From Cyanophyceae cyanobacterium (GTDB lineage Bacteria; Cyanobacteriota; Cyanobacteriia; Cyanobacteriales; JBHJGN01): a DNA stretch of 64,000 nucleotides. The notes under the pieces were generated by a model. That model was not told where the DNA came from, did no database searches, and was given only the letters and a program-made list of their open reading frames with translations. Each line of letters begins with the position of its first letter. Within the stretch, counting starts at the first letter, position 1. The stretch is taken from the NCBI GenBank assembly GCA_050331735.1, contig JBHJGN010000004.1, forward strand, positions 64,001 through 128,000, written 5' to 3'. Shown here piece after piece: positions 5,241 through 22,571 of this stretch. The translations under genes and the position numbers were made by a program.

Positions 5241-6275
5241 CTAGTGCCACCGCAGCAGGTTTAAGCAATCGTTGGCGGTTTCCTCAACAATAGCAGTCAC
5301 AAATTCGCGGGCATCGGTGGTGCGGCAGATTGAATCGACCTGAGTCCGACACAGAGCGATCGCACTCTGACCCGGTTTTGAGGGTCTGGAGGATTCGGGA
5401 AGCGTTGCCAGCTCTAGCGTGGTCCCAATTGTAAACAGCATCGGAGCGTTGAGGAGTCGCTGTGGGGGCAGGGAGCGAATTTCGAGGAGGGCAGCCGTCA
5501 GAGCGCGATCGCTCTTTGACATGGCTGACCAAGCATGGTCTAGTAAATCGGCTAGGCTAAAAAAGCTCTGGGGAAGCTGTTGGCTCATCGAGAGCAGCTT
5601 GTTAATCAGCAGCGATCGAAACCGGTGAGTATCGCCGGTTTCCAGCTCATAAACAGCCACCGCACTGCTAAACACCTCTCTCGCCAGCAGCACCACCTGA
5701 ACGGCCCACGGCAGGTTAGTATAGCTTTGTCCGGCAGTCCATGCCGTCACAATCTGAGCCAAATCTTCGTTGGCCGCCACGCGCACTTCCAACTGTCTCA
5801 CTCGCGCTTCTAGCTGATTGAGGCGATCGCCCACCTGCTGCGCGAGACAATTGAGCTGTTGAGCGAGCAAACTAACGGCCTCCTGGTGGTCTTGAGAGAG
5901 CTGCCGATACCGCCGGATGGCGTTGCGCGCTTCGAGCAAGGATTGTTGCGTCACTTCTAGCGCCACTTGGCTAATGCGCAGTGAATCGCTCAGTTCTAAA
6001 ACCCATTGTCTGAGGGCTTCTTGACCAGCAATTAAATTCCCGTTGAGCAGCAGTTGGCGAGAGCGATCGCTTCCGTCTAGGCTGGACATCAATTGACCAA
6101 AATAGCCCAAACTTTTCCGATAGCGAATCACGTCGTTGCTGACCTGAATGCCGTTGACAATATTGACCAGTGCCCGATCGCCAACAATCGGAATCCGCTG
6201 CTGTAATTCTGCTAAATATCCCGTCGAATGGCTAACAACGTTGATCGGACTGCTGTGACTGAATTCTAAATTCAT
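5241..6275 (-). CDS. YjcZ/RdcB-like coiled-coil protein
   Basis: Starts 3 bp after the dynamin stop; IPIVGDRALVNIVNGIQV...GQEALRQWVLELSDSL and coiled coil resemble the YjcZ family, which partners YjdA/CrfC. Confidence 0.65.
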   Translation of the reverse strand: MNLEFSHSSPINVVSHSTGYLAELQQRIPIVGDRALVNIVNGIQVSNDVIRYRKSLGYFGQLMSSLDGSDRSRQLLLNGNLIAGQEALRQWVLELSDSLRISQVALEVTQQSLLEARNAIRRYRQLSQDHQEAVSLLAQQLNCLAQQVGDRLNQLEARVRQLEVRVAANEDLAQIVTAWTAGQSYTNLPWAVQVVLLAREVFSSAVAVYELETGDTHRFRSLLINKLLSMSQQLPQSFFSLADLLDHAWSAMSKSDRALTAALLEIRSLPPQRLLNAPMLFTIGTTLELATLPESSRPSKPGQSAIALCRTQVDSICRTTDAREFVTAIVEETANDCLNLLRWH

Positions 6276-6278
6276 GGC

Positions 6279-8624
6279 TTAGCGAGCATTTAGTAGAGCG
6301 TTAGTACGCTCAAGATAGATTTCTGATTTTTTGAGCTTTGCTGCTGTCTCCGAAACGAGAGATTTGAAGGTTCCCGCTAATTGACTCTCGGCGGCCAGGG
6401 ATTGCTGTTTGGCCTGCTGAGCTTGCCTGAGGCTGTCCTGGTAACAGTACAGGTAGTGATTGAGTTCGCCAAAGTAAGCCTCAACGTGCTGCTGCCATTC
6501 TTCCTGGACGTACTGAGCAATCTGTTGATTAAGCTGAGCGATGCTGTCGGTGATCGCCTGATTAATCTGCTTAGCTAATTCTTCTAAAGAAACAGTATAG
6601 TAAGTCTTTATTTTGGTAATGGGAATCTTCTGCTCTACCTTAAGCAAAAACAAAAAATAGAAAGGTCTTTTGACTTTAATTTCGACATTTTTGATCGGTT
6701 TGTCGATCTGCTCGACAACGGTTTGCCGACAGTTAAGCTGACGACTAGCAAGGGCAGGCCGCGAGAAAGTTAGCTCTCGCTTAAAATTTTGGGGGAGACA
6801 AGACTGAGCTTCTTCGAGCGCGGCTAATTCTTGAGTAAGCACTAATTGTAGCTGAGCTTGTGCTCTCTCAATTTGTTGTTCTATAGCGTTACCAACGTTT
6901 TCTAGCAGCTTGTTGGCGGCTTGTTGAATCCAAGTCACCGCTTGCTCAGCAAAGTTTCGCGCTTCTTGCTCAGTGGTAAACTCGAAGATGCCAAAGGATT
7001 TGTATTGAAAGCTCAAGTCTGAGTGTTTGAGCCAGGTGGAGAAAGTTTCGGTCTCATCTAGGGAGCTAACACTCTGTCCAGGGCTGAGCTGCTGTAGAAG
7101 CTGATGCCAGTCGTTGCTATCCTCGATCAAAAAATCCTCAACGCGAACCTGGAGCTTCTGATGAAGCAACTTAATGATATTATCTAGGCTCTGCTTCAGA
7201 TGGTGACTGACGGGCTCGACTGCTTGCAGGCGATCGCGGCATTGCTCAACGCCAAGTAGTTCCGCTGCTAACGCCTCCACCTCTAATCGCCATGTCTCTT
7301 CCTCTTGTTTCCACGCATTCTGGCGCAGATTGAGGTCGTTTTTGAGTTCCAGCAACAGATTGCGACCCAACTGGAGCGCCGACACCATACAGCGGGGAGC
7401 GGCACTTTCTAGCAGGGCTTGAATGGCTCCTCCTAAGAAGGGTTGCATTCCAGAGTCTTCCCACAAATACAGGGCCTCCTCCTGGAGTTCGGCTACCCTC
7501 GAGCGGGCCAGTTTGCTCGCCCATCGCGGACCTAATGCTTCTTGCGCTAAGGCTGATGCAGACTCTAGATCGGCTAAATTCGCGTCTGGATACTGCTGTC
7601 GCTCCCGGAGAAATTTGGCCGCCGAGAACGCCCGAATCGCTGAGACTTCAAATATCCGCTTGCTGTAGCGATGGTCAAATGACAAATCGGCACAGACGAA
7701 TTCCCGAACTTCTTGAGGAGACAAATCGCCTTGTCGTCGCTGGTCTATTTTGTTCACGAGAATGTAAAGATTTTCTGGCCCCAGTAATTCAATCACTGGC
7801 TGGACGTGTTGTTTCACTTCCGCAGCAGCCTGAGTGTTGAGCTGAGTAAAGTCTAGAACCAACAAGACGAGGGAGCTGCGACGCAGTTGTTCTTCCACCA
7901 CCGACATTAATTTCAGACTGTCCTCCGCTTCGTTCGGTCCTGGGGTATCCACAATCACCAAATTGCCAAGTTCCGGGGGCTGAGTTGGCGAGTGCCAAAA
8001 CGGAGTTTCGAGATGCGGTAACTCCATCAGGTGAGCCAGCGGATCTTGGGCAGGATTGACGATGCTGCAAAGGCGGATCACATCATTGAGAGTCGTGAGG
8101 GTATTCTCGATCTCCTCGCGTCCGCAGGCTTTTGCTAGCAGGGGGACTTCGGCGGGAATTGCCTCGAGTAGCTCCATCAAGTGAGGATACTGACCCACCT
8201 TTGTACGCATCTGTTCGATGCCTAATGCCTTAGTTTGCCACCGCAGTACCGTCAGAGCCGCCTGAAACACCGAGAGAATTTTGGGGCTGAGGGTGAGCAC
8301 TGGCTCTGCAATGGCCCCGTTGAACACAATTTCGGTGGGCAGCATCGTCATCGCGGTGTTGCGACTAGGCAGCAGCTCCTGTCCGACAATCGAGTTGACA
8401 ATAGTGGATTTTCCGGCCTTCATCGGGGCAACGACGGCCATTCTCAGCTCTAAATCTGCGACATTCCGCGCTGCTTGAGCAATTTCTTGTCGATAAAGGA
8501 CGTATGGGGGAGAGTGTTCGGTACTGAGCGCCGCAGCACGCTCCATAAGTTCGCCAATTTGCTTGAGTAGTTCAAGAACGTCTTGCTGTAGTTCCTGGAC
8601 GTTAGGCTTGAGAGTCATAATCAT
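6279..8624 (-). CDS. Bacterial dynamin-like GTPase (YjdA/CrfC-like)
   Basis: G1 APMKAGKST, LLPSRNTAMT, G3 DTPG, G4 NKID; long helical C-terminus with a hydrophobic patch FYFLFLL. Confidence 0.85.
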   Translation of the reverse strand: MIMTLKPNVQELQQDVLELLKQIGELMERAAALSTEHSPPYVLYRQEIAQAARNVADLELRMAVVAPMKAGKSTIVNSIVGQELLPSRNTAMTMLPTEIVFNGAIAEPVLTLSPKILSVFQAALTVLRWQTKALGIEQMRTKVGQYPHLMELLEAIPAEVPLLAKACGREEIENTLTTLNDVIRLCSIVNPAQDPLAHLMELPHLETPFWHSPTQPPELGNLVIVDTPGPNEAEDSLKLMSVVEEQLRRSSLVLLVLDFTQLNTQAAAEVKQHVQPVIELLGPENLYILVNKIDQRRQGDLSPQEVREFVCADLSFDHRYSKRIFEVSAIRAFSAAKFLRERQQYPDANLADLESASALAQEALGPRWASKLARSRVAELQEEALYLWEDSGMQPFLGGAIQALLESAAPRCMVSALQLGRNLLLELKNDLNLRQNAWKQEEETWRLEVEALAAELLGVEQCRDRLQAVEPVSHHLKQSLDNIIKLLHQKLQVRVEDFLIEDSNDWHQLLQQLSPGQSVSSLDETETFSTWLKHSDLSFQYKSFGIFEFTTEQEARNFAEQAVTWIQQAANKLLENVGNAIEQQIERAQAQLQLVLTQELAALEEAQSCLPQNFKRELTFSRPALASRQLNCRQTVVEQIDKPIKNVEIKVKRPFYFLFLLKVEQKIPITKIKTYYTVSLEELAKQINQAITDSIAQLNQQIAQYVQEEWQQHVEAYFGELNHYLYCYQDSLRQAQQAKQQSLAAESQLAGTFKSLVSETAAKLKKSEIYLERTNALLNAR

Positions 8625-9076
8625 GACGCAGATCCCAAGTTGTCAGCTCCAGTGTGGCATTTCTCCGAGAACCGAGTCATCGGTGAAAACCGAGGAGGCG
8701 ATCTTTGAGCTTACTGAGTGAATGCCGGGAACTTTGGGAGATGGGCTGCGTCTTTCGAGGCAGCCCTTTCTCCAGCAGTAAGGTTTCTGTACTAACAACT
8801 ACTGCCTGAGTTGCTCGCCCAAATTTTTCAGTGCATTGTCTGAGGCCCAATACTGCACAGAAGCGCTAGGGTGTTGTCTACCTAGCTTGAGCAACAACGG
8901 TCAGAAATTCGGTCATAAATTCCTTAGAAACGACCAGAAGGTACTGACATTCGCCAAGGACCGTGCCAAGATTGCTGTTAGGTAAAGTAATATAAAGCTA
9001 ACTTTTTCGTCGTTCTCTAGAGCCTTAGCTCCGGGAACCTCGTCTCCAGCAGACAACCGGACCACTACTTCCCGAG

Positions 9077-10909
9077 ATGAAGATGACTCAAAGCCGCGAG
9101 CCGTTATCGGCAGACGTTCAATACTCTACCTTGGTAGAGCTGCTGCGTGGAAGGGCGCGGCACCAGAGCGAGCGTCATGCCTATACCTTTTTAATCGACG
9201 GTAAAAAAGCGAGCGCTCCGCTGACCTACGGAGAACTCGACCGTCAAGCCCGAGCGATCGCTGCTCACCTCCAGCAGCATCAAGCTCAAGGAGAACGGGC
9301 GCTGCTGCTGTATCCGCAAGGCTTAGAAATGGTGGCGGCGTTTTGTGGCTGTCTCTATACTGGAGCGATCGCCATTCCCGTTCCGCCCCCGGAGTCCGGC
9401 AGACTGAAGCGGACGCTCCCGCGGCTGCGCTCGATCGTCAAAGATGCCCAAGCCACCTTTGCGCTGACGACAGGGCGAATTCTCTCTCTCGTCGAGAATG
9501 TCCGCGACGAATTTCCCGAATTTGACCAGATGCGCTGGCTAGATACCGAGCAGCTCGACCTCACGCTAGCCGAGCAGTGGCAGGAGCCGCCCTTAGACAA
9601 AGACACGCTCGCTTACCTGCAATACACCTCTGGCTCCACCTCGACGCCGAAAGGAGTGATGCTCAGCCACTTCAATTTGATGCATCACGCGGCCTATCTC
9701 CAAAAAGCCTGTGGCTACGAACCAGAGAGCGTCACGACCTGCTGGATGCCCTACTTCCACGATTATGGACTGGTAGAAGGAATAATGGTGCCGCTCTACA
9801 ACGGGACTCCGTGCTATTTGATGTCTCCTTTCTCCTTTATCAAGCGTCCGGTACAGTGGCTCCGCAATATTACCCACTTTGGAGTCACCCACTCTCAAGC
9901 CCCCAACTTTGCCTACGACCAGTGCGTACGACGAGTTAAGCCCAAGCAGCTAGCCGAACTCAACCTGAGCGGCTGGCAAGCGGCGGGTAACGCGGCTGAG
10001 CCGATTAATCCGAAGGTGATGGAGCAATTTGTCGAAACCTTTGCTCCCTGCGGCTTTTCGTGGTCAGCCTTTGCTCCAGCCTATGGACTGGCTGAATTTA
10101 CTCTGCTGGTGTCCTCTAAGCCGAAAGGACAAACGCCAGTCCTGCTCAACGTTGATGCCGCCGCCATCGAACGCGACAAAATTGTTTCGGTGTCTGCCGA
10201 GGAGGGGCGCACGATTGCTGGCTGCGGTCATCTGGTGGGCAATACGCAAGTGGCAATTGTTCATCCTGACTCCCACCGACGCTGTGCTGAAGATGAAGTG
10301 GGAGAAATTTGGGTGTCAGACCCGAGCGTTACCCAGGGTTACTGGCAGCGCCCCGAAGAAACGGCCCGGACTTTCCAGGCCATGATTAAAGATACTGGGG
10401 AAGGACCGTTTCTGCGTACTGGCGACCTCGGATTTCTTAAAGATGGAGAACTGTTTATTACCGGACGCATCAAAGACCTGATTATTATTCGGGGAACGAA
10501 CCATTACCCCCAAGATATTGAGTGGACGGTTCAGAATCTCCATTCTGCCCTGCGTCCGGATTACGGAGCCGCCTTTTCTATTCAGGACCGCGGCGCAGAA
10601 CAGCTAGTTGTGGTCCAGGAAGTAGAGCGCCGCGCCGAAAACATTGAGGCCGATCAGCTCATTGCCGATATTCGCCAAGAAATTGCCGAACAGCACGAAC
10701 TCCAGGTATACGCCGTGGTGTTAGCTAAACCGGGCAATATCCTCAAAACGGCGAGCGGCAAAATTCAGCGTCGGGCCTGTCGTCACAATTTTCTCACCGG
10801 ACAGCTCACGGCGATCGCCGACTGGTGCGAAAATCCGCAGCTAAGCGCTAAATTTCGGACTCTACAAGGAGAAGTCGAGTCTTTGGCGCAACAAGTTATC
10901 GGCACATAG
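9077..10909 (+). CDS. Fatty acyl-AMP ligase (FAAL 1)
   Basis: YLQYTSGSTSTPKG, PYFHDYGL, YGLAE, FAAL-type insertion before GCG, FLRTGDLG, GRIKD, KTASGKIQR. Confidence 0.92.
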   Translation: MKMTQSREPLSADVQYSTLVELLRGRARHQSERHAYTFLIDGKKASAPLTYGELDRQARAIAAHLQQHQAQGERALLLYPQGLEMVAAFCGCLYTGAIAIPVPPPESGRLKRTLPRLRSIVKDAQATFALTTGRILSLVENVRDEFPEFDQMRWLDTEQLDLTLAEQWQEPPLDKDTLAYLQYTSGSTSTPKGVMLSHFNLMHHAAYLQKACGYEPESVTTCWMPYFHDYGLVEGIMVPLYNGTPCYLMSPFSFIKRPVQWLRNITHFGVTHSQAPNFAYDQCVRRVKPKQLAELNLSGWQAAGNAAEPINPKVMEQFVETFAPCGFSWSAFAPAYGLAEFTLLVSSKPKGQTPVLLNVDAAAIERDKIVSVSAEEGRTIAGCGHLVGNTQVAIVHPDSHRRCAEDEVGEIWVSDPSVTQGYWQRPEETARTFQAMIKDTGEGPFLRTGDLGFLKDGELFITGRIKDLIIIRGTNHYPQDIEWTVQNLHSALRPDYGAAFSIQDRGAEQLVVVQEVERRAENIEADQLIADIRQEIAEQHELQVYAVVLAKPGNILKTASGKIQRRACRHNFLTGQLTAIADWCENPQLSAKFRTLQGEVESLAQQVIGT

Positions 10910-11042
10910 GTGTCCGACGACGAGACTGCCGCTGACTCCTAGGAAAACTGCTAAGATAGTGGCTAATTTAAGGGAATTTTCTCCTTCCAAAATCTGCTTG
11001 CTCTAGGGGTCACTCATCCAGACGTTTGTTGAAGAAATCATT

Positions 11043-12836
11043 ATGCATAAACTGAAGCAATACTGGGTAGCCGAAACGCTCGAAAAAGATTTAGGCAGCC
11101 CCAACAATCCAGACAGCGTCATGTCTTTTAAAAGAGTCGTCGAACTCGACGAGCGCGAGGAGTTTCCCGAACAAGAAATCAACTGGCTCTACAACTGGAA
11201 ACTGCACCACTACTACATCCCGACCAACTGTGGTGGTGAGTTTACCTCGTTTGAGGAATTTGTGGCGTTTGTGCGCGTCCTCTGTCGCCGGGATCAAAAC
11301 ATTGGCATTGCCTTTACCACCATGTTTTGGTCGTTCTTAACCTGGATGGGAGGAACCGACGAACAGAAGCAGCAGCTTGCTCAGTATCTGAAGGACCACA
11401 ACGGGACTCTCTGCTTGGGGTATTCCGAAAGAGAACACGGCAGCGATTTAGTCGGAGGAAGCGTCACGGCCACTCCTGTTGCTGGCGGCTATCTGCTCAA
11501 CGGAGAAAAATGGCCCATCAACCGCGCTACCCTTTCTGGTGTTTCTTACGTCCTGGCTCGTACCGGCAATCTAGGAGAAGCAAAGAGCCTATCGCTTTTT
11601 GCTGTGGATAAAAGCAAGATTAATGCTTCCCAATACTATAATCTTCCCAAAATTAAGACTCACGGAATTCGCGGGGCCGATATGAGCGGCATCGGCTTCA
11701 AAAATTGTTTCGTCCCCGAATCGATGCGCCTGCAAAAAGAAGGAGACGGGTTAGAGCTAGCCCTCAAAGGATTCCAAATTACTCGCACTCTTTGCGCGGC
11801 GTTCTCCCTAGGGGCTGCCGATACCGCGCTCAGGACCACGCTCAACTTTGCCCGACACCGCATCGTCTACAACAAGACAGTATTTGAGCTACCGCAGCCT
11901 CGTCAAACTCTGGTAAACGCCTTTCTCGATATTCTCATTGGAGATTGTGAAACGATCGGGGCAGCGCGGGGATTTCATGTGGTTCCTGAACAGTTTAGCG
12001 TCTGGGCATCGGTTGTCAAATACCTGGTAACTACCCGATTAGAAACGGCCATCAACGACGTATACCCGGTGTTAGGCTCGCGTTTCTACATGCGGGAAGA
12101 ACATAACTGGGGAATTTTCCAAAAGGTCTTGCGCGATAACTCCATCATCAGTATGTTTGACGGCAGTACCGTGGTCAATCTACACGCTCTGATTCTACAG
12201 TTCCGCCAAATCACTAAGTACCGCTCCCGCCGCAAAGCCAACACCCTCGCTGAAATTGGTTCTCGCTTGGAGACCATCTTCTCGCTGGAGCAGTCAGTGC
12301 CCTCCTTTGCGCCTGAGAAGCTAGCGCTTTTCGGTCGCGGTGCTGACGATCCGCTTCAGGGACTAGAAATTGCCCTAGAACAGCTACAGGCTCTTGAATC
12401 CAAGGTTGATAGCGGAGTGTTAGAGAAGCTCCTGTCTCTGGGTAATCTAGTGCTGGAAGAATTGAACGCTCACGATGACCGAATTGCCAACTCCAAGTTT
12501 GAGTTTGGTCACGCTCAGTCTCCAGAATTGTTTGAAATTGCGAAGCAGTACTGTACGCTGCATGCAGCGGCCTGCTGTCTGCATATGTGGCTTTACAACC
12601 GCCACATCTTGGGAGACTTTTTTGCTCAAGGAGAATGGCTCGTCCTCAGTCTACACAGGCTGCTGCGCACCGTAAGACCTCTACCCTATGTGATCGCTCA
12701 AGCCTACGTAGAGAATGTCGCTCAAGAGCTACTCAAGCTGCACCGCGAGGAACGAGCGTTTTCGATTGTTCCTTTTCAACTGGCCTCGTCGTCAGCTCAG
12801 GAATCCCCCGTTTCAGAGCTACAGCTCCAAGCCTAA
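11043..12836 (+). CDS. Acyl-CoA/acyl-ACP dehydrogenase
   Basis: GYSEREHGSD, LNGEKWPIN, GIRGAD, LGAADTALR, MFDGST. Confidence 0.88.
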   Translation: MHKLKQYWVAETLEKDLGSPNNPDSVMSFKRVVELDEREEFPEQEINWLYNWKLHHYYIPTNCGGEFTSFEEFVAFVRVLCRRDQNIGIAFTTMFWSFLTWMGGTDEQKQQLAQYLKDHNGTLCLGYSEREHGSDLVGGSVTATPVAGGYLLNGEKWPINRATLSGVSYVLARTGNLGEAKSLSLFAVDKSKINASQYYNLPKIKTHGIRGADMSGIGFKNCFVPESMRLQKEGDGLELALKGFQITRTLCAAFSLGAADTALRTTLNFARHRIVYNKTVFELPQPRQTLVNAFLDILIGDCETIGAARGFHVVPEQFSVWASVVKYLVTTRLETAINDVYPVLGSRFYMREEHNWGIFQKVLRDNSIISMFDGSTVVNLHALILQFRQITKYRSRRKANTLAEIGSRLETIFSLEQSVPSFAPEKLALFGRGADDPLQGLEIALEQLQALESKVDSGVLEKLLSLGNLVLEELNAHDDRIANSKFEFGHAQSPELFEIAKQYCTLHAAACCLHMWLYNRHILGDFFAQGEWLVLSLHRLLRTVRPLPYVIAQAYVENVAQELLKLHREERAFSIVPFQLASSSAQESPVSELQLQA

Positions 12837-12864
12837 TTTGTTCACCCTACCAGACCAGCTTATA

Positions 12865-13209
12865 ATGACTCCTGTAGAAACTATTCAGAATTGGCTCGTC
12901 AATCAGCTTGCCGAGCAGCTTTCTTTGGACGCTAATGCGATTAGCACCACAGAGCCGCTGACTCGCTATGGACTCGACTCCATTGACGCTGTCACTATCG
13001 TCGGCGACTTAGAAGACTGGCTAGATATGGAGCTTCCCTCAACTTTATTTTGGGATCATCCAACGATTGCTCAATCCTCTCAGTTTCTAGCCGATAATTA
13101 CGATGTTGCCGGAGCACTAAACAGTGAGCCCCAAAGCGACGCAGCAGACCCCGAACCAGTGACCAGCGGCAAGGGTTGGGGTGGATTATTTGGTCGCTTC
13201 GGCTCTTAA
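12865..13209 (+). CDS. Acyl carrier protein with C-terminal extension
   Basis: YGLDSIDAV phosphopantetheine Ser motif and LPSTLFWDHPTI; ATG at 12865 (track ORF over-extended upstream). Confidence 0.9.
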   Translation: MTPVETIQNWLVNQLAEQLSLDANAISTTEPLTRYGLDSIDAVTIVGDLEDWLDMELPSTLFWDHPTIAQSSQFLADNYDVAGALNSEPQSDAADPEPVTSGKGWGGLFGRFGS

Positions 13210-13222
13210 AAAACAGCCAGTC

Positions 13223-13246
13223 GTTGGGGGAGAATCGCTCCCCAAC
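13223..13246 (+). terminator. Intergenic stem-loop after ACP (stabiliser or partial terminator)
   Basis: GTTGGGGGAG...CTCCCCAAC inverted repeat; no clear U-tract. Confidence 0.45.
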
Positions 13247-13275
13247 CAAACAGTACTCCCTCCTCAGTTCAGACC

Positions 13276-14736
13276 TTGAATTACTCGGACTTTTCTTTTT
13301 GGTGGATACTGCTCCTCTTTTGCGTTCCGTTCTTTACGGTACGCACCGTTGCTAGATCGGTTAATCTGTGGCCGGGGTTTTTCGATGCCTTGGGGCTGAT
13401 GGCTCTGTCGCTGCTCCTCTTCTTCAACGCCAGCCGTGCTAGCTTCGTTGTTTTTATTTTCGAGGTGGTTTTTAACTACGTAATGGTGGCGCTGATGCAG
13501 CGCACTCGCGGTTGGCAAGCCAAGCTGTTTGCGGGGGTCATCATTACGATTGACATTGCTATTCTGGCGTACTTTAAGTATCTAGCCTTCTTTGTTGAAG
13601 ATGTTTTTGGGATACTAGCGGGGGGGGTTGCCGACAACTGGGATCGCAGTTTGCCGATTCCGGTCTATAGCCATATTCCTCCAGGGGTGTCTTTCTACAC
13701 CTTTCAGATGGTGGCCTTTGTCGTTGATTCTCTCACAGCCCGCAAGAAACGCCCGATCGGCTTTGTTGACTATATCAACTTTGTCGCCTTCTTCCCCCAA
13801 ATTGTGGCCGGACCCATTGAGCGGCGCACGAACTTGTTTCCCCAAATTGAATCGTTTCGCTTCAAAGCCACTTTGGAAAATTTCGATGTTGGCCTGCGGT
13901 GGCTGTCTTTGGGGTTATTTATGAAGTTTGTGCTGGCCGACAATCTGTTTCCCTACATTGATTTAACCACTGTCGAAAATGCTTGGGGAGTCTGGTTCAA
14001 CGCGTTTATCTTTACTCTCAGAATTTATTTCGACTTTGCTGGCTATAGCTTTATTGCCCTGGGAATCGCTCGCTTTCTGGGTGTACGCCTGACAGTCAAC
14101 TTTTTAGCACCCTATACCAGCCCGAGCATTAACGAATTTTGGCGGCGATGGCACATTACCCTGAGCACCTGGTTTAGGGATTACGTGTTTCTCCCGCTGA
14201 TGGGATCTCGGAAAAAACTAGCGCCTTTCTTCCTCTTTATTACGTTCACGCTGTCGGGTTTTTGGCACGGAGCTGCCTGGAACTTTATCATCTGGGGAGC
14301 CTATCATGGCGCTCTGCTGCTCGTGCTGCGCTATCTAGGCAGACCCTTCCATAAAGTGGTGGGTCAACACATTGCCCGACCTCAGTTTATCTCTTGGGGA
14401 TTGACCTTTGGCTCTGTCGTACTCGGCTGCCTGTTCTTTATGGATACCGATATCGGTCGTTTACTCCTCAAGCTGAGAACGTTAGTGACTCCCTGGGCTT
14501 ATTCTCTGTCTAATTTAGGAGAATTTTTCGGCTCCTACAGCGTCAACGAAGGAGCGGCTCTGCTACTGATTTTGGCCCTCTCCGGTCTCGTGCTGCTGAT
14601 GGAACATATTGCCGTTTGGCAGCGGAAGTTTGAATACGAACTCTTGCTTTCCCCTTGGGTATCGCCCGTGCTGCTAGGGCTAACACTACTATTAGCGGCC
14701 AATACTCCTTCTGAATTTATCTACTTCGAGTTCTGA
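13276..14736 (+). CDS. MBOAT O-acyltransferase (AlgI/DltB-like) 1
   Basis: PPGVSFYTFQ, FFPQIVAGPIER, YFDFAGYS, FWRRWHITLS, catalytic GFWHGA; ends SEFIYFEF. Confidence 0.93.
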   Translation: MNYSDFSFWWILLLFCVPFFTVRTVARSVNLWPGFFDALGLMALSLLLFFNASRASFVVFIFEVVFNYVMVALMQRTRGWQAKLFAGVIITIDIAILAYFKYLAFFVEDVFGILAGGVADNWDRSLPIPVYSHIPPGVSFYTFQMVAFVVDSLTARKKRPIGFVDYINFVAFFPQIVAGPIERRTNLFPQIESFRFKATLENFDVGLRWLSLGLFMKFVLADNLFPYIDLTTVENAWGVWFNAFIFTLRIYFDFAGYSFIALGIARFLGVRLTVNFLAPYTSPSINEFWRRWHITLSTWFRDYVFLPLMGSRKKLAPFFLFITFTLSGFWHGAAWNFIIWGAYHGALLLVLRYLGRPFHKVVGQHIARPQFISWGLTFGSVVLGCLFFMDTDIGRLLLKLRTLVTPWAYSLSNLGEFFGSYSVNEGAALLLILALSGLVLLMEHIAVWQRKFEYELLLSPWVSPVLLGLTLLLAANTPSEFIYFEF

Positions 14737-15668
14737 TGAAATTTAAGTTAGTTCCTTGGTTTGTAGCGGCAGGGGTAGCCTGGTCGTTGGGCTACGCCTA
14801 TAACGTCTACTACGGCGGCGAACTGAGCTGGCTGCGGGCGATGTACGAGCAGAAACTGGCGATCGCCGCCGCCACCGAAGCTCCCCAACGACTGCTGATT
14901 ACTGGCGGTTCGGGAGCCCACTATACCCTCGACTCCGAACTGATTGAGCAGCAGTTGGGCATTCCCGTAATTAATTTGGGCATCGACGGTCCTGTGGGGC
15001 TGAACGTGATTCTGCCCAGCGTTCTCGACCAGGTGCGTCCGGGTGACGTGGTGCTGCTGATTCCGGAGTATTTAATTTTGCTGGATGAGGACGGTTTAGG
15101 CGATCGCTCTGGTCCCTTTAGCTTGGCCATTCATCGACCCGGCTTAGGGGGCGTTCCTCCGAAGCAGTTAGCCCAGGACATTATGCTGCTGGGAGTGCCG
15201 ACGCTGCGCTCTGTCGCAAAATCTGCCATGGATTTGGTTCGGGATGGTGAATTATCCGGGTACTATTCCGATCCCCTCACCGAACGAGGCGATCCGACGA
15301 CCGTCAATACTCGTACGGGAGAGTGGTGGCAATTGCAGATTAGTCAATCCATTTCCCCACACGCCGCGAACAGAATCGCTCAATTTCAGGAAGAAGTCGC
15401 GGCACGGGGCGGAACCCTGGTGCTGTCTTTGCCCTGGGTTTACGCTCAGGCCGACCAAGAAACCCTCACCAACGTACAGAAGACCGCCGAACAGCTAGAG
15501 GGAATTGCGCCCACCATCTACGATCCCTCCTCACTCAACATCAAGACAGACTCTAGCCTGTTTGCCGATACTCACTATCACCTCCTCCCAGAAGCTCGCC
15601 GAATTCGTGCTCGGGAATTAGCAGCTCAGCTACAGCCCGTCCTAAAAACAATTAACAATGACCAGTGA
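14736..15668 (+). CDS. Membrane-anchored SGNH-like (DltD/AlgJ-like) acyltransferase partner
   Basis: N-terminal TM, LLITGGSGAH (block I Ser), INLGIDG, FADTHYH; TGATG overlap with the MBOAT stop. Confidence 0.7.
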   Translation: MKFKLVPWFVAAGVAWSLGYAYNVYYGGELSWLRAMYEQKLAIAAATEAPQRLLITGGSGAHYTLDSELIEQQLGIPVINLGIDGPVGLNVILPSVLDQVRPGDVVLLIPEYLILLDEDGLGDRSGPFSLAIHRPGLGGVPPKQLAQDIMLLGVPTLRSVAKSAMDLVRDGELSGYYSDPLTERGDPTTVNTRTGEWWQLQISQSISPHAANRIAQFQEEVAARGGTLVLSLPWVYAQADQETLTNVQKTAEQLEGIAPTIYDPSSLNIKTDSSLFADTHYHLLPEARRIRARELAAQLQPVLKTINNDQ

Positions 15669-16815
15669 ACGATGTCATATCTGTGTTCTTGGTGGCGGCT
15701 TCGGTGGTCTCTACACGGCTCTCTATTTCAGCCACTTTTCTCGGGTAAAATCGGGAAAATGCCAAGTTACCCTGGTTGAAAAAAACGATCGCTTTCTGTT
15801 TACGCCTCTCCTGTATGAGCTGCTCACGCAAGAACTACAGCGCTGGGAAATTGCTCCTTCCTACTACAAGCTGCTGGCCCGGACCAAAATTAAGCTCTGT
15901 CAACAGACGATTGAGGACGTAGATCTCAAAGCTCGTCGGGTTCGACTAGCAGAGGGGCACCTAACTTACGACTATCTGGTTCTGGCCGTCGGCAACCAAA
16001 CTCAGTATGCTCAGATTCCCGGTGTCGTTGAACATACCCTGCCATTTCGGACTCTCGCGGATGCCGAACTTTTAGATCAGCGGCTTCAGCTTTTAGAAGC
16101 TACCCAACGACAGCGCCTGCGCGTTGCCATCGTTGGCGGTGGCCCCAGCGGAGTGGAACTGGCCTGCAAGCTCGCTGACCGTCTTCACAAACGGGGTCAA
16201 ATCTCTCTGCTCGACCGGGGGGAGCAGTTGCTCAAGCCCTATAACCAAGCCATTCGAGCAGCGGCAGAGCGATCGCTTCATCAGCGCCGGGTGCAGGTGA
16301 GTCTCAATACCACCGTCAAAACCATTACAGCAGAGCACATTACTCTTGTTCAAGATGAACAAATCCAAACCGTTCCGGTAGACCTGGTGCTGTGGACGGC
16401 AGGAACGAAGATTAGAGACTGGGTGCAGAAACTCGAGTGTCAGCACAACGAGCGCGGCCAGGTTCTAACGAGGCCAACTCTACAGCTAGTAGATTACCCG
16501 GAAGTGCTAGCGCTGGGAGATCTGGCCGAGTGCCAGAGCAAACAAGCACCGACGACGGCTCAAGTCGCGTATCAGCAGGCCAGCCGCGCTGCTAAAAACC
16601 TCAAAGCAATTGTGAAAGGGCAACGTTTGCGTACTTTTCACTATCTTCACTTAGGAGATATGTTAACTCTAGGCAAGGGGGCGGCCATTGTTTCTAGTTT
16701 TTCGATTAATATTACTGGCTCTTTCGGTGCTCTGCTCAGACGATTAATTTACGTTCAGCGCCTCCCGACGTGGCGACATCGATTACAGGTGTTGAAACGT
16801 TTGTTGGTCGGTTAA
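15658..16815 (+). CDS. Type II NAD(P)H:quinone oxidoreductase, NdbB/NDC1-like
   Basis: GGGFGGLYTAL, FLFTPLLYELL, GGGPSGVELA, ALGDLA, TAQVAYQQA, LGDMLTLG. Confidence 0.85.
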   Translation: MTSERCHICVLGGGFGGLYTALYFSHFSRVKSGKCQVTLVEKNDRFLFTPLLYELLTQELQRWEIAPSYYKLLARTKIKLCQQTIEDVDLKARRVRLAEGHLTYDYLVLAVGNQTQYAQIPGVVEHTLPFRTLADAELLDQRLQLLEATQRQRLRVAIVGGGPSGVELACKLADRLHKRGQISLLDRGEQLLKPYNQAIRAAAERSLHQRRVQVSLNTTVKTITAEHITLVQDEQIQTVPVDLVLWTAGTKIRDWVQKLECQHNERGQVLTRPTLQLVDYPEVLALGDLAECQSKQAPTTAQVAYQQASRAAKNLKAIVKGQRLRTFHYLHLGDMLTLGKGAAIVSSFSINITGSFGALLRRLIYVQRLPTWRHRLQVLKRLLVG

Positions 16816-16913
16816 CCGGACGCTGCGTTTCGACGGCAGGCTGGGTAAACTAGTTGGCAAGGCAGAATTGCCCAGGCTTCAGTAAAGAGCATAAAATTAA
16901 GGACCACAGAGCA

Positions 16914-18731
16914 ATGTTATTGAAGGAAAACAAGCTAGAGGAGGTTTTCGGCCTAGATTTACGGTCTTTGGGTCTATTTCGTATCGGTCTCGCCTTAGTG
17001 GTAATAGCAGATTTGAGTATCCGAGCTGGAGAGCTAACGGCTCACTATTCAGATGCAGGTGTGCTGCCTCGCGCCACGCTCATTAACGAAATTTTACCCT
17101 CTGGCTACTGGTCAATTAACTTAATTAGTGGCTCACCGCTGGTTCAGGCCCTGCTGTTTGGTATCGCGCTTTTGGTCGCGGTCGTGCTGCTGGTAGGCTA
17201 TCGGACTCGACTGGCGACGATCGCCACTTGGGCAATGCTTGTTTCGATTCACAACCGGAACCCGGCTCTCATTTTCGCTGCCGACGACGTGCTGCGAGCG
17301 ATGCTGTTTTGGTCGATGTTTTTGCCGTTAGGAGCGAGCTACTCGCTCGACAGTGCCCTCAACTCTTCTACCAAGCCGCTGCCTAAACGGGTGCTTTCCG
17401 TGGCGACGGTGGCTTTTATTGTCCAAATTTGCTACATTTACATATTTTCTGCCGCCTTTAAAACCCACAGCCCGCTGTGGTCTGGTGGAGAAGCAGTTTA
17501 CTATTCGTTTCAGTTTGACCAATACGGAACGCCTTTAGGGCAATTTCTGCTCAACTTTCCGGGGTTACTGAAGCTGTTTACATTCTTCGCTTTGTGGTTG
17601 GAATGGCTCGGCCCGCTGCTGCTGTTTATTCCCTTCCGCACGAGCCTTTGGCGCTGCGTGACAATTGTGTTGTTTGTCCTGCTTCACGTCAGCTTTGGAC
17701 TCTGCTTTCGATTAGGCATTTTCCCGTTTCTCAGCACTTTTAGCTGGCTCGCCTTGATTCCGAGTTCGGTCTGGGACGGGCTCAGAGCGCGAATTGCTGA
17801 CTCCCGCCGTAGCGGACTGAGAATTTACTACGATGCCGAGTGTGGCTTCTGTAAAAAGGTAGTTTATCTGATTCGGACGTTTCTAATCCTGCCCGGAACT
17901 CCGCTATTGCTGGCACAGAGCGAGCCGTCGATCTATGCCGATATGCAGGAGAAAAATTCCTGGGTCGTGGTGGACTGGCAAGAACACCGACACTATAAAT
18001 GGGAGGCGATCGCCTACGTGTGTAGTTTGTCTCCTCTCCTCTGGTTTCTCTCTCCGATCCTGCGGTGGAAACCACTAATGGCTATAGGCACCAAAATCTA
18101 TGAAACCATCGCCTCTAACCGCCGATTCATGGGCAAGTTTACCGCGCCGCTCAAGTGGAAACCGCTCGAAGTCCGTCCTCGCCTCTGGTTCAACCTCATT
18201 ACTTTCGCTCTGCTGCTCTACGTAACGATTTGGAACTTTAGAAGCCTAGCTCTTAGCATTCTCCCGCGCGACCATCTGGTGCATCAAACTTTCAGAAGAA
18301 GAACCTTTAATACCCTTAACTGGTTTGGGAAAGTGACTCGCCTCGATCAGTCCTGGAGTATTTTTGCGCCTAACCCTCCCCGAGATGATGGCTGGTATGT
18401 CGTGCGCGGTATCCTCGATAACGGTCGTGAAGTTGATATTCTCAGCGGGGAATCTCCTAACTACGATAAGCCAACCCTGCGCCAGCGTAACGCGCTCTAT
18501 CGCAACATGCAGTGGCGCACGTACTTCATTAACTTGAATCGAGCGATTGGGCAGAAACTATATGCTGACTATGGCGCTTACCTTTGCCGTCACTGGAACA
18601 GTCAGCATAGCGAACAGCTTAACACCATAGAAGTTTATTTTATGGATGAAACAACGGTACCGCCCGGTGAAACCCAAACGGTTACCAAACGAACAACCTG
18701 GGAGCAAACTTGCCCAAGTAGCGAGGAGTAG
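16914..18731 (+). CDS. HTTM-domain membrane protein with an inserted DCC1-like thiol-disulfide domain
   Basis: DLRSLGLFRIGL, HYSDAGVLPR, HNRNP, LPLGASYSLD, IYYDAECGFC (DxxCxxC), DQSWSIFAPNP. Confidence 0.8.
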   Translation: MLLKENKLEEVFGLDLRSLGLFRIGLALVVIADLSIRAGELTAHYSDAGVLPRATLINEILPSGYWSINLISGSPLVQALLFGIALLVAVVLLVGYRTRLATIATWAMLVSIHNRNPALIFAADDVLRAMLFWSMFLPLGASYSLDSALNSSTKPLPKRVLSVATVAFIVQICYIYIFSAAFKTHSPLWSGGEAVYYSFQFDQYGTPLGQFLLNFPGLLKLFTFFALWLEWLGPLLLFIPFRTSLWRCVTIVLFVLLHVSFGLCFRLGIFPFLSTFSWLALIPSSVWDGLRARIADSRRSGLRIYYDAECGFCKKVVYLIRTFLILPGTPLLLAQSEPSIYADMQEKNSWVVVDWQEHRHYKWEAIAYVCSLSPLLWFLSPILRWKPLMAIGTKIYETIASNRRFMGKFTAPLKWKPLEVRPRLWFNLITFALLLYVTIWNFRSLALSILPRDHLVHQTFRRRTFNTLNWFGKVTRLDQSWSIFAPNPPRDDGWYVVRGILDNGREVDILSGESPNYDKPTLRQRNALYRNMQWRTYFINLNRAIGQKLYADYGAYLCRHWNSQHSEQLNTIEVYFMDETTVPPGETQTVTKRTTWEQTCPSSEE

Positions 18732-18802
18732 AAGCCTGCGCGTCACCGTCATTTTCTGACCTTCATCAAGCCACAATAACGCTCGGCTGAACCGATATCA
18801 AA

Positions 18803-20494
18803 ATGAGCCGCCCCCCACTCGAGACCCCCCCCACTCGCCGTCATCAACGACTGATAGTTAAGGCGGCTTTCTGGCTAATAGCAATAGCCCTCGGGTTTCT
18901 ACAGGCTTGGAATAGCCGCTATAGCTTGTCCACAGGAGATGCCGTTTCTTACCTCGATCTTGGCAAAGCGTATCTTCAAGGAGATTGGGATGCGGCGGTG
19001 ACTTCCTATTTTGCTCCTCTGTACCCAATCTTTTTGGCTAGCTTTCAGGCGCTCCTCAGTCCTTCGAGCTTCTGGGAATTTTTTGTTGTCAAACTGACTA
19101 ACCTATTTATTTTGGCACTTAGTCTTGTTTGTTTTGATAGATTTCTCCACGAATTTATTATTTACTACAACAGTCACCGAACAACTGACAAAGAGCGTTG
19201 GCTCATTCCATCGTGGCTTTGGATAGTCGCTGGCTACATTTTATTTATTTGGTCAGCGACTCAATGGATAGGCGTTGATACCGATAGTCCCGATTTGTTG
19301 ATGTCGGCAACAATCTATCTAGCGATGGCCATTGTGCTCAGGATTAGCCGCTCTGAGCAGTGGACCAGTTTTATTTTGTTAGGGGTCGTGTTAGGACTTG
19401 GGTACTTAACTAAATCCTTTATGTTTCCAATGGCGTTTATTTTTTTGGGAGTTTCCTTCTTTTCAACTCAGAAAAATTTCCGGTCAGCGGCTAAAATTGC
19501 CGTGGCTTTTTTGGCTTTTGTCACGATCTCGTGCCCCTATATTTACGCCATTTCCTCTTTTGAAGGCGAGTTCACTTTTGGATCAAGTGGGCAGTTGAAC
19601 TACGCTTGGAACGTCAGTCCTGGAGGAATACACAATCATTATTGGCAAGGAGAACCGGCAGGAAGTGGGATACCAAAGCATCCAATTAGACAGGTTTTCG
19701 ATCAGCCGACGGTTTACGAATTTGGAGAACCGATTGGGGGAACGTATCCACCTTGGCACAATCCTGCTTACTGGAACGCTGGTTTGCAGACCACGTTTAA
19801 CTTGAGGAAGCAAATACACGTTCTCTGGGTCCACGCGCTAGAGTATTACCGCATCTTTTTTGGGGTTTTACTGTTTGGGTATTTGATTTTTGTGGCGGTA
19901 ACCGATAGTTGGAACGTTGCCGTCAAAAACTTGCTCAGAAACTGGATACTGCTTATTCCAGCTTGTGCTGGCTTAGGAAGCTTTATGTTAGTGCACGTCA
20001 GGGCAAGATACAGTGCTGCCCTCATTGTTATTTTGTTTGCGGCATTTTTTGGCAGCGTTTATCCTCCTAACGTCAAAGCCGTAAAACGCTTTACTGTTAC
20101 TGCTGTGCTGAGCATGACGCTACTGATTTGGCCTCAATTTGCTACCGCAGCAAAGAGTGCAGGAGAACCGCTTCAGTGGAAAATTGCCAACGGACTAAAT
20201 CAGCTAGGAATCGAGTCTGGAGAGCGAGTCGCTATTCTCGGTGGCTATAAGGTTGGCAGCAATTACTACTGGGCAAAACTAGCAGATCTCAAAATTGTGG
20301 CGGAAATTCCTAGCATCGAGGAGTTTTGGGAGGCGGATGACGCTACTCGCCAGAGAGTTTACGATACGTTAACAAGGACTGGAGCAAAAATTCTTGTTCA
20401 AGAACCCGGACAAGATTCCCCTCTCAAGTATTTGGAGACAGATGACTGGCAGAAAATTGACAATACGAAGTCCTATGTCCGTTTTTTACGGTGA
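18803..20494 (+). CDS. Polytopic membrane protein, probable GT-C (ArnT/PMT-like) glycosyltransferase
   Basis: Many TM segments; acidic first loop GDAVSYLDLG; PLYP, PDLL, LGLGYLTKS. Confidence 0.55.
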   Translation: MSRPPLETPPTRRHQRLIVKAAFWLIAIALGFLQAWNSRYSLSTGDAVSYLDLGKAYLQGDWDAAVTSYFAPLYPIFLASFQALLSPSSFWEFFVVKLTNLFILALSLVCFDRFLHEFIIYYNSHRTTDKERWLIPSWLWIVAGYILFIWSATQWIGVDTDSPDLLMSATIYLAMAIVLRISRSEQWTSFILLGVVLGLGYLTKSFMFPMAFIFLGVSFFSTQKNFRSAAKIAVAFLAFVTISCPYIYAISSFEGEFTFGSSGQLNYAWNVSPGGIHNHYWQGEPAGSGIPKHPIRQVFDQPTVYEFGEPIGGTYPPWHNPAYWNAGLQTTFNLRKQIHVLWVHALEYYRIFFGVLLFGYLIFVAVTDSWNVAVKNLLRNWILLIPACAGLGSFMLVHVRARYSAALIVILFAAFFGSVYPPNVKAVKRFTVTAVLSMTLLIWPQFATAAKSAGEPLQWKIANGLNQLGIESGERVAILGGYKVGSNYYWAKLADLKIVAEIPSIEEFWEADDATRQRVYDTLTRTGAKILVQEPGQDSPLKYLETDDWQKIDNTKSYVRFLR

Positions 20495-20704
20495 GCTGAA
20501 ATTGAGCTTGCTCAAAGCAGCCGCCGGAAGAGGTTACGGCGGAACTTTGAGCGACAAGACAAATTAAAAAAGTAACAAGTTGCAGGTGATTGCTTACTCC
20601 ACGGTCAACAATTATTCTCTACAGAATATATCAGGAAAACCACTTAAGACTAAATTGGCGCATACTTTACCTCAATTAGTTAAAGCTAGGAAATGGAAAC
20701 TTAG

Positions 20705-22186
20705 ATGCTATTTAACTCCTACATATTTATTTTCTGCTTTTTGCCAATTACGTTAACCATCTTTTTTTGTCTAGCTCGATTTCGCCAGCTTCAGGCTGCT
20801 AAAGTGTGGTTAACTATAAGTTCCTTATTCTTCTACGGCTATTGGAATATTAGCTATTTACCGCTGCTAGTAGGATCGATTATTTTTAATCATCAAATCG
20901 GTCACAGAATTGCTTTGACTAAACCAGAAAGTCGTCAAGCAAAAGCATTGCTGTGGATAGGAATTTGCGTTAATTTAGCCGCGATCGCCTACTACAAATA
21001 CGCTAACTTTTTTCTCACTTCCGTCAACGTCGTTGCGAACACTCGCCTAGCTTTACCAACAATTATTCTCCCGCTGGCAATTTCCTTCTACACCTTTACT
21101 CAAATTGCTTATTTGGTAGATGCCTATCGAGGCGAAACCAAAACGGCCAACTACGACCTCCTTACCTATAGCTTATTTGTGGTCTTTTTCCCTCAGCTAA
21201 TTGCGGGGCCGATTCTGCGCCATGACGAACTCATCCCGCAGTTTCGTCAACTACGAAATTTTATTTTTTCCCATAAAAATTTTGCTCTCGGACTCACTTT
21301 ATTTAGCTTGGGCCTAGCTAAAAAAGTACTGATCGCCGATATTCTATCGCCTTGGGTAGCTCTCGTTTTCGATCATGCAGAAGCCGTGACTTTTATTGAA
21401 GCCTGGGTAGGCGCTTTTAGCTATACTTTTCAGCTTTATTTTGACTTTTCTGGCTACTCAGACATGGCAATCGGCTTAGGGTTAATCTTTAATATTCATC
21501 TGCCGATCAATTTCGATTCTCCCTACAAAGCCAGCTCAATTATCGATTTTTGGCGACGCTGGCATATTACGCTCTCCAATTTTTTGCGAGATTACCTGTA
21601 CATTCCTCTTGGAGGAAGTCGCCAAGGAGAACTACGGCGCTACCTCAACCTCTTGACCACCATGCTACTAGGAGGACTTTGGCACGGTGCTGGCTGGACG
21701 TTTGTTATTTGGGGAGGACTGCATGGCGTTTATCTCTCGCTCAATCACTGGTGGCGCAAGCAAAAGATTCCGCTCCCGAACCTGCTCGGATGGGCGATTA
21801 CATTTGGGGCTGTTATGGTGAGCTGGGTATTATTTCGCGCGTACAGTCTGCAAGAGGGGGTAGCAATTTTACTGGCAATGTTTGGAGCGAAGGGAGTTGT
21901 GTTGCCTGGAGAACCTAGCGGGAAGCTTGCCTTTCTGACCCTATTTGGCGTTCGGCTTCAGCGATGGGCAGAACTAAACTATCTGCCCACGTTATATGAT
22001 AGTAAAGCTTTGGGTATGCTAGCCCTAGCCACGTTGACGGGGTGCGTAACGCTATTGCCCAATACTCAGCAAATTCTGCAAAAGCTGAAGCCAACATGGT
22101 GGTGGGCGTTAGGAATTGGAGCGATCGCTGGGTGTAGCTTACTCTCTCTCAACCGCGTGTCTGAGTTTCTCTATTTCCAGTTTTAA
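20705..22186 (+). CDS. MBOAT O-acyltransferase (AlgI-like) 2
   Basis: MLFNSYIFIFCFLP, LPLAISFYTFTQIAY, FPQLIAGPI, FWRRWHITLS, GLWHGAGW; ends SEFLYFQF. Confidence 0.95.
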   Translation: MLFNSYIFIFCFLPITLTIFFCLARFRQLQAAKVWLTISSLFFYGYWNISYLPLLVGSIIFNHQIGHRIALTKPESRQAKALLWIGICVNLAAIAYYKYANFFLTSVNVVANTRLALPTIILPLAISFYTFTQIAYLVDAYRGETKTANYDLLTYSLFVVFFPQLIAGPILRHDELIPQFRQLRNFIFSHKNFALGLTLFSLGLAKKVLIADILSPWVALVFDHAEAVTFIEAWVGAFSYTFQLYFDFSGYSDMAIGLGLIFNIHLPINFDSPYKASSIIDFWRRWHITLSNFLRDYLYIPLGGSRQGELRRYLNLLTTMLLGGLWHGAGWTFVIWGGLHGVYLSLNHWWRKQKIPLPNLLGWAITFGAVMVSWVLFRAYSLQEGVAILLAMFGAKGVVLPGEPSGKLAFLTLFGVRLQRWAELNYLPTLYDSKALGMLALATLTGCVTLLPNTQQILQKLKPTWWWALGIGAIAGCSLLSLNRVSEFLYFQF

Positions 22187-22556: not shown

Positions 22557-22571
22557 ATCCTCTTAAGCAGC

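Follow-up and report, generated by a model that had tools for sequence, protein, structure and literature searches.

We examined a 64,000-nt stretch of DNA from Cyanophyceae cyanobacterium (assembly GCA_050331735.1, contig JBHJGN010000004.1, positions 64,001-128,000), which is called the window hereafter and whose own positions are used for all coordinates. Within positions 9077-15668, five open reading frames (ORFs) on the + strand encode a fatty acyl-AMP ligase (FAAL; 610 aa, 9077-10909), an acyl-CoA/ACP dehydrogenase (ACAD; 597 aa, 11043-12836), a stand-alone acyl carrier protein (ACP; 114 aa, 12865-13209, with the start taken as the first ATG past the ACAD stop), a member of the MBOAT family (MBOAT1; 486 aa, TTG start, 13276-14736), and a protein with an N-terminal helix (P310; 310 aa, 14736-15668) that is a candidate acyl-transfer partner. 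A sequence-only reading of this region had proposed that these genes form an operon in which fatty acid activation is joined to an acyl relay resembling the Dlt pathway, and the co-oriented ORFs lie exactly where that reading placed them. The intergenic gaps measure 133, 28, 66, and -1 nt. The last value reflects the TGATG coupling already noted there, wherein the MBOAT1 stop TGA (14734-14736) and the P310 start ATG (14736-14738) have one base in common. Two more genes continue on the + strand. The first encodes an extra paralogue of NDH-2-like flavoproteins (Pyr_redox_2, Pfam 2.5e-46; 15658-16815) and overlaps the P310 gene by 11 nt. The second encodes a 625-aa multi-pass membrane protein of the HTTM/LMF1-like type with an inserted DCC1-like domain (HTTM625; 16854-18731), for which an alternative start is possible at the ATG of residue 21.

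The identities first assigned to the FAAL, dehydrogenase, ACP, and MBOAT genes are borne out by Pfam and NCBIfam. The FAAL matches Pfam AMP-binding at 5.3e-65 and carries a DIP2-like C-domain. NCBIfam FAAL models match at 4e-137 to 1e-105, all under their curated cut-offs, whereas most CoA ligase models match no better than 1e-52; one model named for a CoA ligase, NF005850, reaches 4.8e-90, also under its cut-off. The nearest solved chains are 7r7e (titled “Polyketide synthase,” 2.1e-166), 3kxw, and FadD32/23/28, with the solved FAALs spanning 2e-166 to 6e-70. Judged by these comparisons, the protein is closer to FAALs than to acyl-CoA synthetases.

Three acyl-CoA dehydrogenase domains are recognized by Pfam within residues 32-380 of the ACAD, which extends ~200 aa at its C terminus beyond classical ACADs; the C-terminal 195 aa give no family match. 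When the ACAD was used to query named genomes, 21 loci were recovered, 14 of them cyanobacterial. The ACP gene directly follows the ACAD gene in 13 of these 14 loci, and the remaining one (L007) stops at a contig end. The same arrangement is seen in four more full sets and in all six loci examined from genomes in which the set is split. The ACP matches Pfam PP-binding at 4.1e-15, with Ser39 located within the sequence YGLDS, and residues Y35, G36, L37, D38, and S39 are invariant across 17 aligned rows. Its residues ~86-114 (window 13120-13209) form an acidic, Pro-rich linker followed by a conserved aromatic tail of the KGWGGLFG type. This tail is found in 13 of 16 cyanobacterial rows, and an NRPS-linked homologue from Aquimarina is without it. 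The tail may be an element for docking to the membrane or to the MBOAT.

MBOAT1 matches Pfam MBOAT at 5.6e-25, the solved DltB proteins 6bug and 8jem at 3e-29, and the NCBIfam DltB model TIGR04091 at 7e-53, with a score of 180.2 bits against a cut-off of 375. By these scores it is homologous to DltB but is no equivalog. The segments WRRWH293 and FWH331G align with WNRWH and FWHG of DltB, and both His residues are invariant in 19 sequences. The sequence-only reading had also pointed to the fused C-terminal motif FIYFEF (codons 14716-14733) as a Tyr-bearing element. The motif is indeed present, and F481, I482, Y483, F484, and F486 (pattern FIYFxF) are invariant in 19 of 19 MBOAT1 orthologues. 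It also fits the FXYXXF definition in PMC12148441, where PatA is described as auto-acetylating the Tyr of this motif and PatB, its SGNH partner, as accepting the acyl group from the acyl-Tyr peptide. That paper presents all characterised MBOATs with a fused motif as acyl-CoA users and states that MBOAT/SGNH pathways other than Dlt “lack a similar carrier protein” (PMC12148441). Judging from its motifs and its gene neighbors, MBOAT1 is built like the fused-motif MBOATs of the acetyl-CoA class, yet sits beside a carrier protein.

P310 is matched by no Pfam or NCBIfam model. An exhaustive phmmer search revealed 2208 relatives at E <=0.001, and an alignment of 73 full-length relatives shows that G58, S59, G185, and H282 are invariant and that D278, N80, and G88 are at least 90% conserved. 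A profile built from these 73 sequences found nothing below E 0.2 among PDB sequences. Weak Pfam matches were observed to Lipase_GDSL_2 in three of the relatives and to ALGX in two, and neither P310 nor any of the 73 matches Pfam DltD. An AlphaFold2 model made from the same alignment has a mean pLDDT of 95.6 and a pTM of 0.92. Foldseek comparison of this model with the PDB retrieved SGNH/GDSL esterases, DltD, and PatB, and among the rows listed the query TM-score peaks at 0.47, for the DltD chain 6pfx_B (E 4.7e-4). VIA-align yielded Z scores of 13.6-11.3 over 157-191 aligned residues for its best 50 rows; wherever a row title names a family, it is that of an SGNH/GDSL-type hydrolase, with TesA and PatB among them. 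From the matches made by both methods, we therefore conclude that P310 is an SGNH-fold protein, and a label that had been a guess from sequence is thus upheld by the predicted fold. A triad formed by Ser59, His282, and Asp278 is plausible from the conservation pattern, with N80 and G88 as candidate oxyanion residues. We infer that the protein is exported or anchored and is located outside the membrane. As a separate observation, a database representative of 624 aa (P0128) reads part of a P310 homologue and Pyr_redox_2 as one protein, which reflects a gene fusion or else miscalling of the overlapping genes.

To establish how these genes are distributed, phyletic profiles were generated for 201 genomes sampled evenly across the phylum. 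Orthologues were accepted at E <=1e-10 for P310 and E <=1e-60 for the ACAD, and at identities of at least 66% for MBOAT1, 54% for HTTM625, and 65% for the FAAL, for which six candidates were scored per genome. Orthologues of all five proteins are found in the identical 11 of 201 genomes (G000, which is the present genome, G020, G026, G068, G080, G107, G150, G154, G170, G182, and G196), even where the genes are scattered. The other 190 genomes have no such orthologue at these cut-offs. Some MBOAT match at <=1e-40 is present in 85 of the 201 genomes, and the next-best match after the MBOAT1 orthogroup is 39% identical. Thus, the two halves of the system, FAAL/dehydrogenase/ACP and MBOAT/SGNH, are co-conserved, which was the test set in advance for the proposal that they function together.

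The physical linkage of the genes is more variable. All seven genes are contiguous in 5 of the 11 genomes. In G170, G068, and G182, the ACAD, ACP, and MBOAT1 genes remain together while P310 is found on another contig. Conversely, G150, G154, and G196 keep MBOAT1, P310, and the NDH-2 gene together, and the ACAD-ACP pair, the FAAL, and the HTTM gene are located elsewhere (in G150, the ACAD gene is 160 kb away on the same contig). Overall, ACAD-ACP-MBOAT1 is contiguous in 8 of the 11 genomes, and P310 adjoins MBOAT1 in 8 of the 11. Shared retention despite this scattering, and the linkage of MBOAT1 to each half in turn, argue that the parts constitute one functional unit. The earlier notion of a five-gene operon therefore holds with respect to the co-conservation of its halves; as a physical unit it does not hold generally, given that 6 of the 11 genomes carry the set in more than one place.

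A similar picture emerges from the named genomes, whose carriers include Crocosphaera, Hyella, Coleofasciculus, Chroococcus, and Xenococcaceae. Of the 13 cyanobacterial loci with sequence past the ACP, 12 have MBOAT1 after ACAD-ACP (L014 is the exception); 11 loci reach beyond MBOAT1, and in 8 of these P310 comes next. The FAAL gene precedes the ACAD gene in 7 of the 14 cyanobacterial loci; it is missing from the 6.6-10 kb upstream of the ACAD in another five, and two further loci are too short to judge. Because the arrangement recurs across genera, it is far beyond what would be expected by chance. Among the sampled genomes, G196 has two tandem MBOAT1 copies (L044 10471-13598), and single in-frame TAA codons are present in the P310 match of G182 and in the HTTM matches of G150 and G154; decay or sequencing errors may be responsible for these features.

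Homologues of the long ACAD (45-48% identity) also occur in FAAL-ACAD-ACP sets outside cyanobacteria. The trio is located directly upstream of a C-A-T-TE NRPS module in Aquimarina (L019) and directly upstream of a KS-AT-DH-KR PKS in a Blastocatellia metagenome-assembled genome (L020), and Streptomyces (L018) carries two tandem long-ACAD copies beside PUFA-synthase-like genes. The presence of an NRPS or PKS directly downstream suggests that the trio is a portable module that passes an ACP-bound, oxidised acyl chain onward. As expected from the sequence-only reading, no PKS or NRPS gene is present within 9-24 kb of the window. By gene order, the cyanobacterial clade has an MBOAT in the place that is held elsewhere by NRPS or PKS enzymes, which use acyl-carrier-protein substrates. 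In Aquimarina, the NRPS module is followed by a 145-aa ORF, an AT3 acyltransferase, an MMPL/RND-type exporter, and a LolA-like protein (L019 8117-21143), and this cluster looks like one for lipoamino-acid export.

Prediction of a complex of the ACP, MBOAT, and SGNH proteins had been suggested along with the original proposal. For the ACP-MBOAT1 pair, with alignments as input, the outcome is weakly positive: the median score is 0.59 (runs of 0.62, 0.59, and 0.58) compared to 0.00 for the best of three controls, with contact agreement of at least 51% between runs and a pLDDT of at least 70 for the ACP. The pass mark used is reached by 116 of 157 solved complexes and by 2 of 215 mismatched pairs, and scores of 0.60 or lower include only 18 of the 157 solved complexes together with both of the passing mismatches. 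Because a DltB-DltC complex has already been solved, the pass may reflect memory or likeness. These predictions lend weak support to docking of the ACP on MBOAT1.

With the identities of the parts, the SGNH fold of P310, the strict co-occurrence, and the alternating linkage established computationally, we propose that the genes encode a carrier-protein-fed, fatty-acyl MBOAT-SGNH relay, to which we assign a probability of roughly 55%. The FAAL would adenylate a fatty acid and load it onto its dedicated ACP, and the ACAD would then oxidise the chain on the ACP, a 2-enoyl thioester being the simplest product. The acyl-ACP would dock at the cytoplasmic face of MBOAT1, by analogy with D-alanyl-DltC on DltB, and MBOAT1 would pass the acyl group to its own Tyr483 within FIYFEF on the outer face. 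Finally, Ser59 of P310 would receive the acyl group and transfer it to an extracytoplasmic acceptor, most likely an envelope glycan or glycolipid. Such an acceptor is favored because GT-C-like, MBOAT2/DUF1574-like, and GT2 genes are located nearby.

The MBOAT2 gene just mentioned bears on another explanation, in which MBOAT1 and P310 are an ordinary acyl-CoA (acetyl) polysaccharide O-acyltransferase and the trio makes a separate lipid, the two being mere neighbors in an envelope island. At window positions 20705-23744, about 5 kb downstream, MBOAT2 (493 aa, ending in FLYFQF, 40% identical to MBOAT1) is followed after a 385-nt gap by a gene for a 390-aa protein (P390). P390 itself has no Pfam match; some of its relatives carry PF07611 (DUF1574), and hhalign comparison of the P310 family with P390 gives a probability of 77% and E 2e-5. 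MBOAT2 and P390 are probably a carrier-less MBOAT plus SGNH-like pair, and the order HTTM-MBOAT2-P390 recurs in L009. A carrier-less pair so close by, the acyl-CoA use of characterised fused-motif MBOATs described in PMC12148441, and the physical separation of the two halves in 3 of the 11 genomes all speak for this explanation. However, it leaves unaccounted for the identical presence and absence of the MBOAT1 orthogroup, ACAD, FAAL, and P310 over the 201 genomes, as well as the contiguity of ACAD-ACP-MBOAT1 in 8 of the 11. Moreover, no other acyl-ACP-consuming enzyme is present near the trio, and the complex predictions, if weakly, also speak for an ACP partner. We therefore consider an acetyl-type pair distinctly unlikely.

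The carrier-fed relay as described involves five genes, which the sequence-only reading took to be the whole set. This proved too few. Full-length HTTM625 orthologues, at the cut-off of at least 54% identity, are confined to the same 11 of 201 genomes, and the best-matching NDH-2 copy adjoins P310 or MBOAT1 in 11 of 11; the conserved unit therefore comprises at least seven genes. The present genome has eight matches to the NDH-2-like protein, the nearest paralogue being 45% identical. Most other sampled cyanobacteria have only a copy at 42-48% identity, and three genomes that lack the system (G162, G134, and G047) carry copies at 51-53%. HTTM625 matches the DCC1-like family at 3.9e-08 (Pfam) and the SdpB family at 3.9e-05 (NCBIfam), and its nearest Atlas clusters correspond to PF04134 and PF05090 with TM values of 0.77-0.82, the nearest cluster having 3796 members. 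One idea, that the HTTM/DCC1 protein matures P310 via disulfides, was dropped, as P310 has no cysteine.

Membership of the NDH-2 copy and the HTTM/DCC1 protein in the functional unit implies an added quinone- or redox-linked step. We tentatively put forward an extended version of the relay, a possibility that falls short of an even chance, in which all seven parts are obligatory, the acyl group is long and probably unsaturated, and a dedicated NDH-2 quinone reductase and the HTTM/LMF1-like-DCC1 protein couple surface lipidation to redox chemistry. If this were true, the system would be the first bacterial MBOAT relay for a long fatty acyl group from a dedicated ACP, and cyanobacteria would have a novel means of making a hydrophobic component of the envelope or sheath. 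HTTM/LMF1-like proteins are widespread in bacteria, and the redox element added by the strictly co-occurring NDH-2 copy and HTTM/DCC1 protein offers a testable handle on the function of this family.

The same two proteins could be given a different role. Perhaps the acceptor is a membrane lipid or quinol, such that MBOAT1, together with P310, esterifies a lipid alcohol and the NDH-2 protein provides reduced quinone, either as the acceptor or as a cofactor of the HTTM protein, which would resemble vitamin K carboxylase. The constant position of the NDH-2 copy next to MBOAT1 or P310 and the restriction of the HTTM/LMF1-like-DCC1 protein to the same 11 genomes would fit such a role. Among eukaryotic MBOATs, DGAT1 and ACAT are lipid acylators, and vitamin K-dependent carboxylase has the HTTM fold. 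However, relays to extracytoplasmic polymers, as PMC12148441 describes them, are marked by just such a fused FXYXXF motif together with an SGNH partner, and the neighboring genes (for a GT-C-like protein, the second MBOAT pair, and GT2) are glycan-related. On balance, a lipid or quinol acceptor seems unlikely.

A further alternative is that the relay lipidates a secreted or periplasmic protein. Eukaryotic MBOATs offer a precedent, in that those acting on Hedgehog, Wnt, and ghrelin lipidate proteins, and HHAT, PORCN, and GOAT would resemble the proposed relay in that a fatty acyl group crosses a membrane and is received by an acceptor on its other side. These enzymes use acyl-CoA donors and acylate proteins directly, with no Tyr shuttle, SGNH partner, or carrier. 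Consistent with protein lipidation, the FAAL implies a long-chain donor, and automatic cluster names tie the HTTM/LMF1-like family to protein maturation. However, no conserved candidate substrate protein is found in the loci compared, and known SGNH partners serve glycan and teichoic-acid acceptors according to PMC12148441. Protein lipidation is thus highly improbable compared to the fatty-acyl relay to an envelope glycan or glycolipid that we prefer.

Several observations weigh against this preferred relay. Some concern the proteins themselves. Asp373 of the ACAD, which is at least 90% conserved, aligns with the Glu of the YEG motif in the best-matching solved ACAD. In P310, the spacing of D278 and H282 (D-x3-H) differs from the canonical DxxH of SGNH proteins, and the N-terminal helix (residues 6-26) is only moderately hydrophobic, falling under the Kyte-Doolittle threshold of 1.6. 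Others concern the distribution of the genes. The FAAL gene is unlinked in 5 of the 11 genomes, and three Crocosphaera-type loci (L005, L006, and L008) have MBOAT1 followed directly by the NDH-2 gene, with no P310. Outside the 11 genomes, one extra genome (G122) has a FAAL match at 54%, and two extra genomes have partial HTTM matches covering only the N-terminal ~290 residues. The 11 genomes represent nine genera in five families and are kin, so that the perfect profile overstates their independence and no formal statistic can be attached to it.

Other difficulties come from the two additional components. A Dlt-like relay does not account for the constant NDH-2 copy or for the HTTM protein, and P310 is tightly paired with an HTTM protein in loci that have no MBOAT. 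One such locus is in the present genome (L003, G000:C64:9000-28900), where paralogous P310-like (327 aa, 63%) and HTTM-like (623 aa, 62%) genes form a pair that adjoins a divergently oriented P390-like gene (403 aa). This locus also carries genes for a DegT aminotransferase, GT2, a small EamA/TMEM234-like protein, a 634-aa multi-pass protein, and a sulfotransferase, and no MBOAT gene is present within 20 kb. The other is in G170 (L038), where the sole P310 gene of the genome adjoins the HTTM gene. Through these pairs, P310 is linked to the HTTM protein in addition to MBOAT1, and it may therefore serve the HTTM protein instead of, or besides, MBOAT1.

It is useful to compare the system to those whose logic it appears to combine. 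As in the Dlt system of Firmicutes (DltA/C/B/X/D, for D-alanylation of teichoic acids), an adenylating enzyme would load a small carrier protein. The likeness extends to an MBOAT with matching His motifs, a Tyr-bearing FXYXXF motif, and an SGNH-fold transferase, as set out in PMC12148441. However, the adenylating enzyme is a FAAL rather than a D-Ala ligase of the DltA type, an ACAD is added, and the carrier is a PKS-type ACP rather than DltC. The FXYXXF motif is on the C terminus of MBOAT1 itself rather than on a DltX microprotein, MBOAT1 falls well below the DltB cut-off (180 bits vs 375), and the likeness of P310 to DltD is only at the level of the fold. In addition, the host is a cyanobacterium of the Gram-negative type, and NDH-2 and HTTM/DCC1 components are extra. 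The system therefore resembles Dlt in logic and falls outside it on four counts: it has no DltA-type ligase, its MBOAT scores under the DltB cut-off, it has no separate DltX, and its SGNH protein is not of the DltD family by sequence.

The comparison with PatA/PatB, AlgI/AlgJ/AlgX, and WssH/WssI gives a complementary result. According to PMC12148441, these systems likewise have an MBOAT with two extra C-terminal helices bearing FXYXXF and an adjacent SGNH partner, but they use an acetyl-CoA donor and have no carrier protein. Here, in contrast, a FAAL-ACAD-ACP supply line strictly co-occurs with MBOAT1. Judged by its His residues, FXYXXF motif, and SGNH partner, the system has the structural features of the fused-motif class, and it differs in its implied donor, which gene context suggests is acyl-ACP.

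The supply line itself resembles the lipo-initiation module of mycobactin synthesis, formed by the FAAL, ACP, and acyl-ACP dehydrogenase known as MbtM, MbtL, and MbtN. The names of these genes and their operon membership are as given in PMC12003420. In both cases adjacent genes specify a FAAL, an ACP that stands alone, and an enzyme of the ACAD family, but here the ACAD is ~200 aa longer than classical ACADs, and an MBOAT is present downstream instead of a condensation or ketosynthase enzyme.

A literature search, which left subscription journals largely outside, found no description of a FAAL-ACAD-ACP plus MBOAT-SGNH combination, in agreement with the earlier statement that no characterised cyanobacterial system like this was known. 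The genes represent a conserved, uncharacterised system, and one that would point to a lipidated envelope component in several cyanobacterial genera. To our knowledge, MBOAT-SGNH relays have only two types of donor, which are acetyl-CoA (for peptidoglycan, alginate, and cellulose) and D-alanyl-DltC (for teichoic acids). If our proposal is correct, a version fed by fatty-acyl-ACP would extend the acyl-tyrosine shuttle mechanism to lipids, and a carrier-protein donor would be compatible with the fused-motif architecture of the AlgI/PatA type.

Noncoding features contribute little to the definition of the locus. Between positions 8500 and 24200, we found 11 promoter-like and 15 terminator-like sites, compared to the 13.1 and 17.5 expected from shuffles. 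As these sites are no commoner than in shuffled sequences, no operon boundaries can be drawn from them. An Rfam scan of positions 8000-24500 gave nothing at E <=0.1. An inverted repeat between the ACP and MBOAT1 genes (~13223-13246) folds no better than shuffles (z -0.12) and was dropped as a candidate.

Other genes in the window are mentioned here for completeness. Upstream of the FAAL gene, divergent genes on the - strand (5241-8624) encode a dynamin-family GTPase (781 aa) and a YjcZ-like protein (344 aa), and a 452-nt intergenic region parts them from the FAAL. Farther downstream, positions 28787-34867 hold two additional FAAL genes (599 and 593 aa) and, after them, a gene for a 549-aa protein in which a PP-binding domain is fused to an alpha-oxoamine-synthase-like class I/II aminotransferase. 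From their domain content, these genes look like a PKS-free route to a long-chain amino-lipid.

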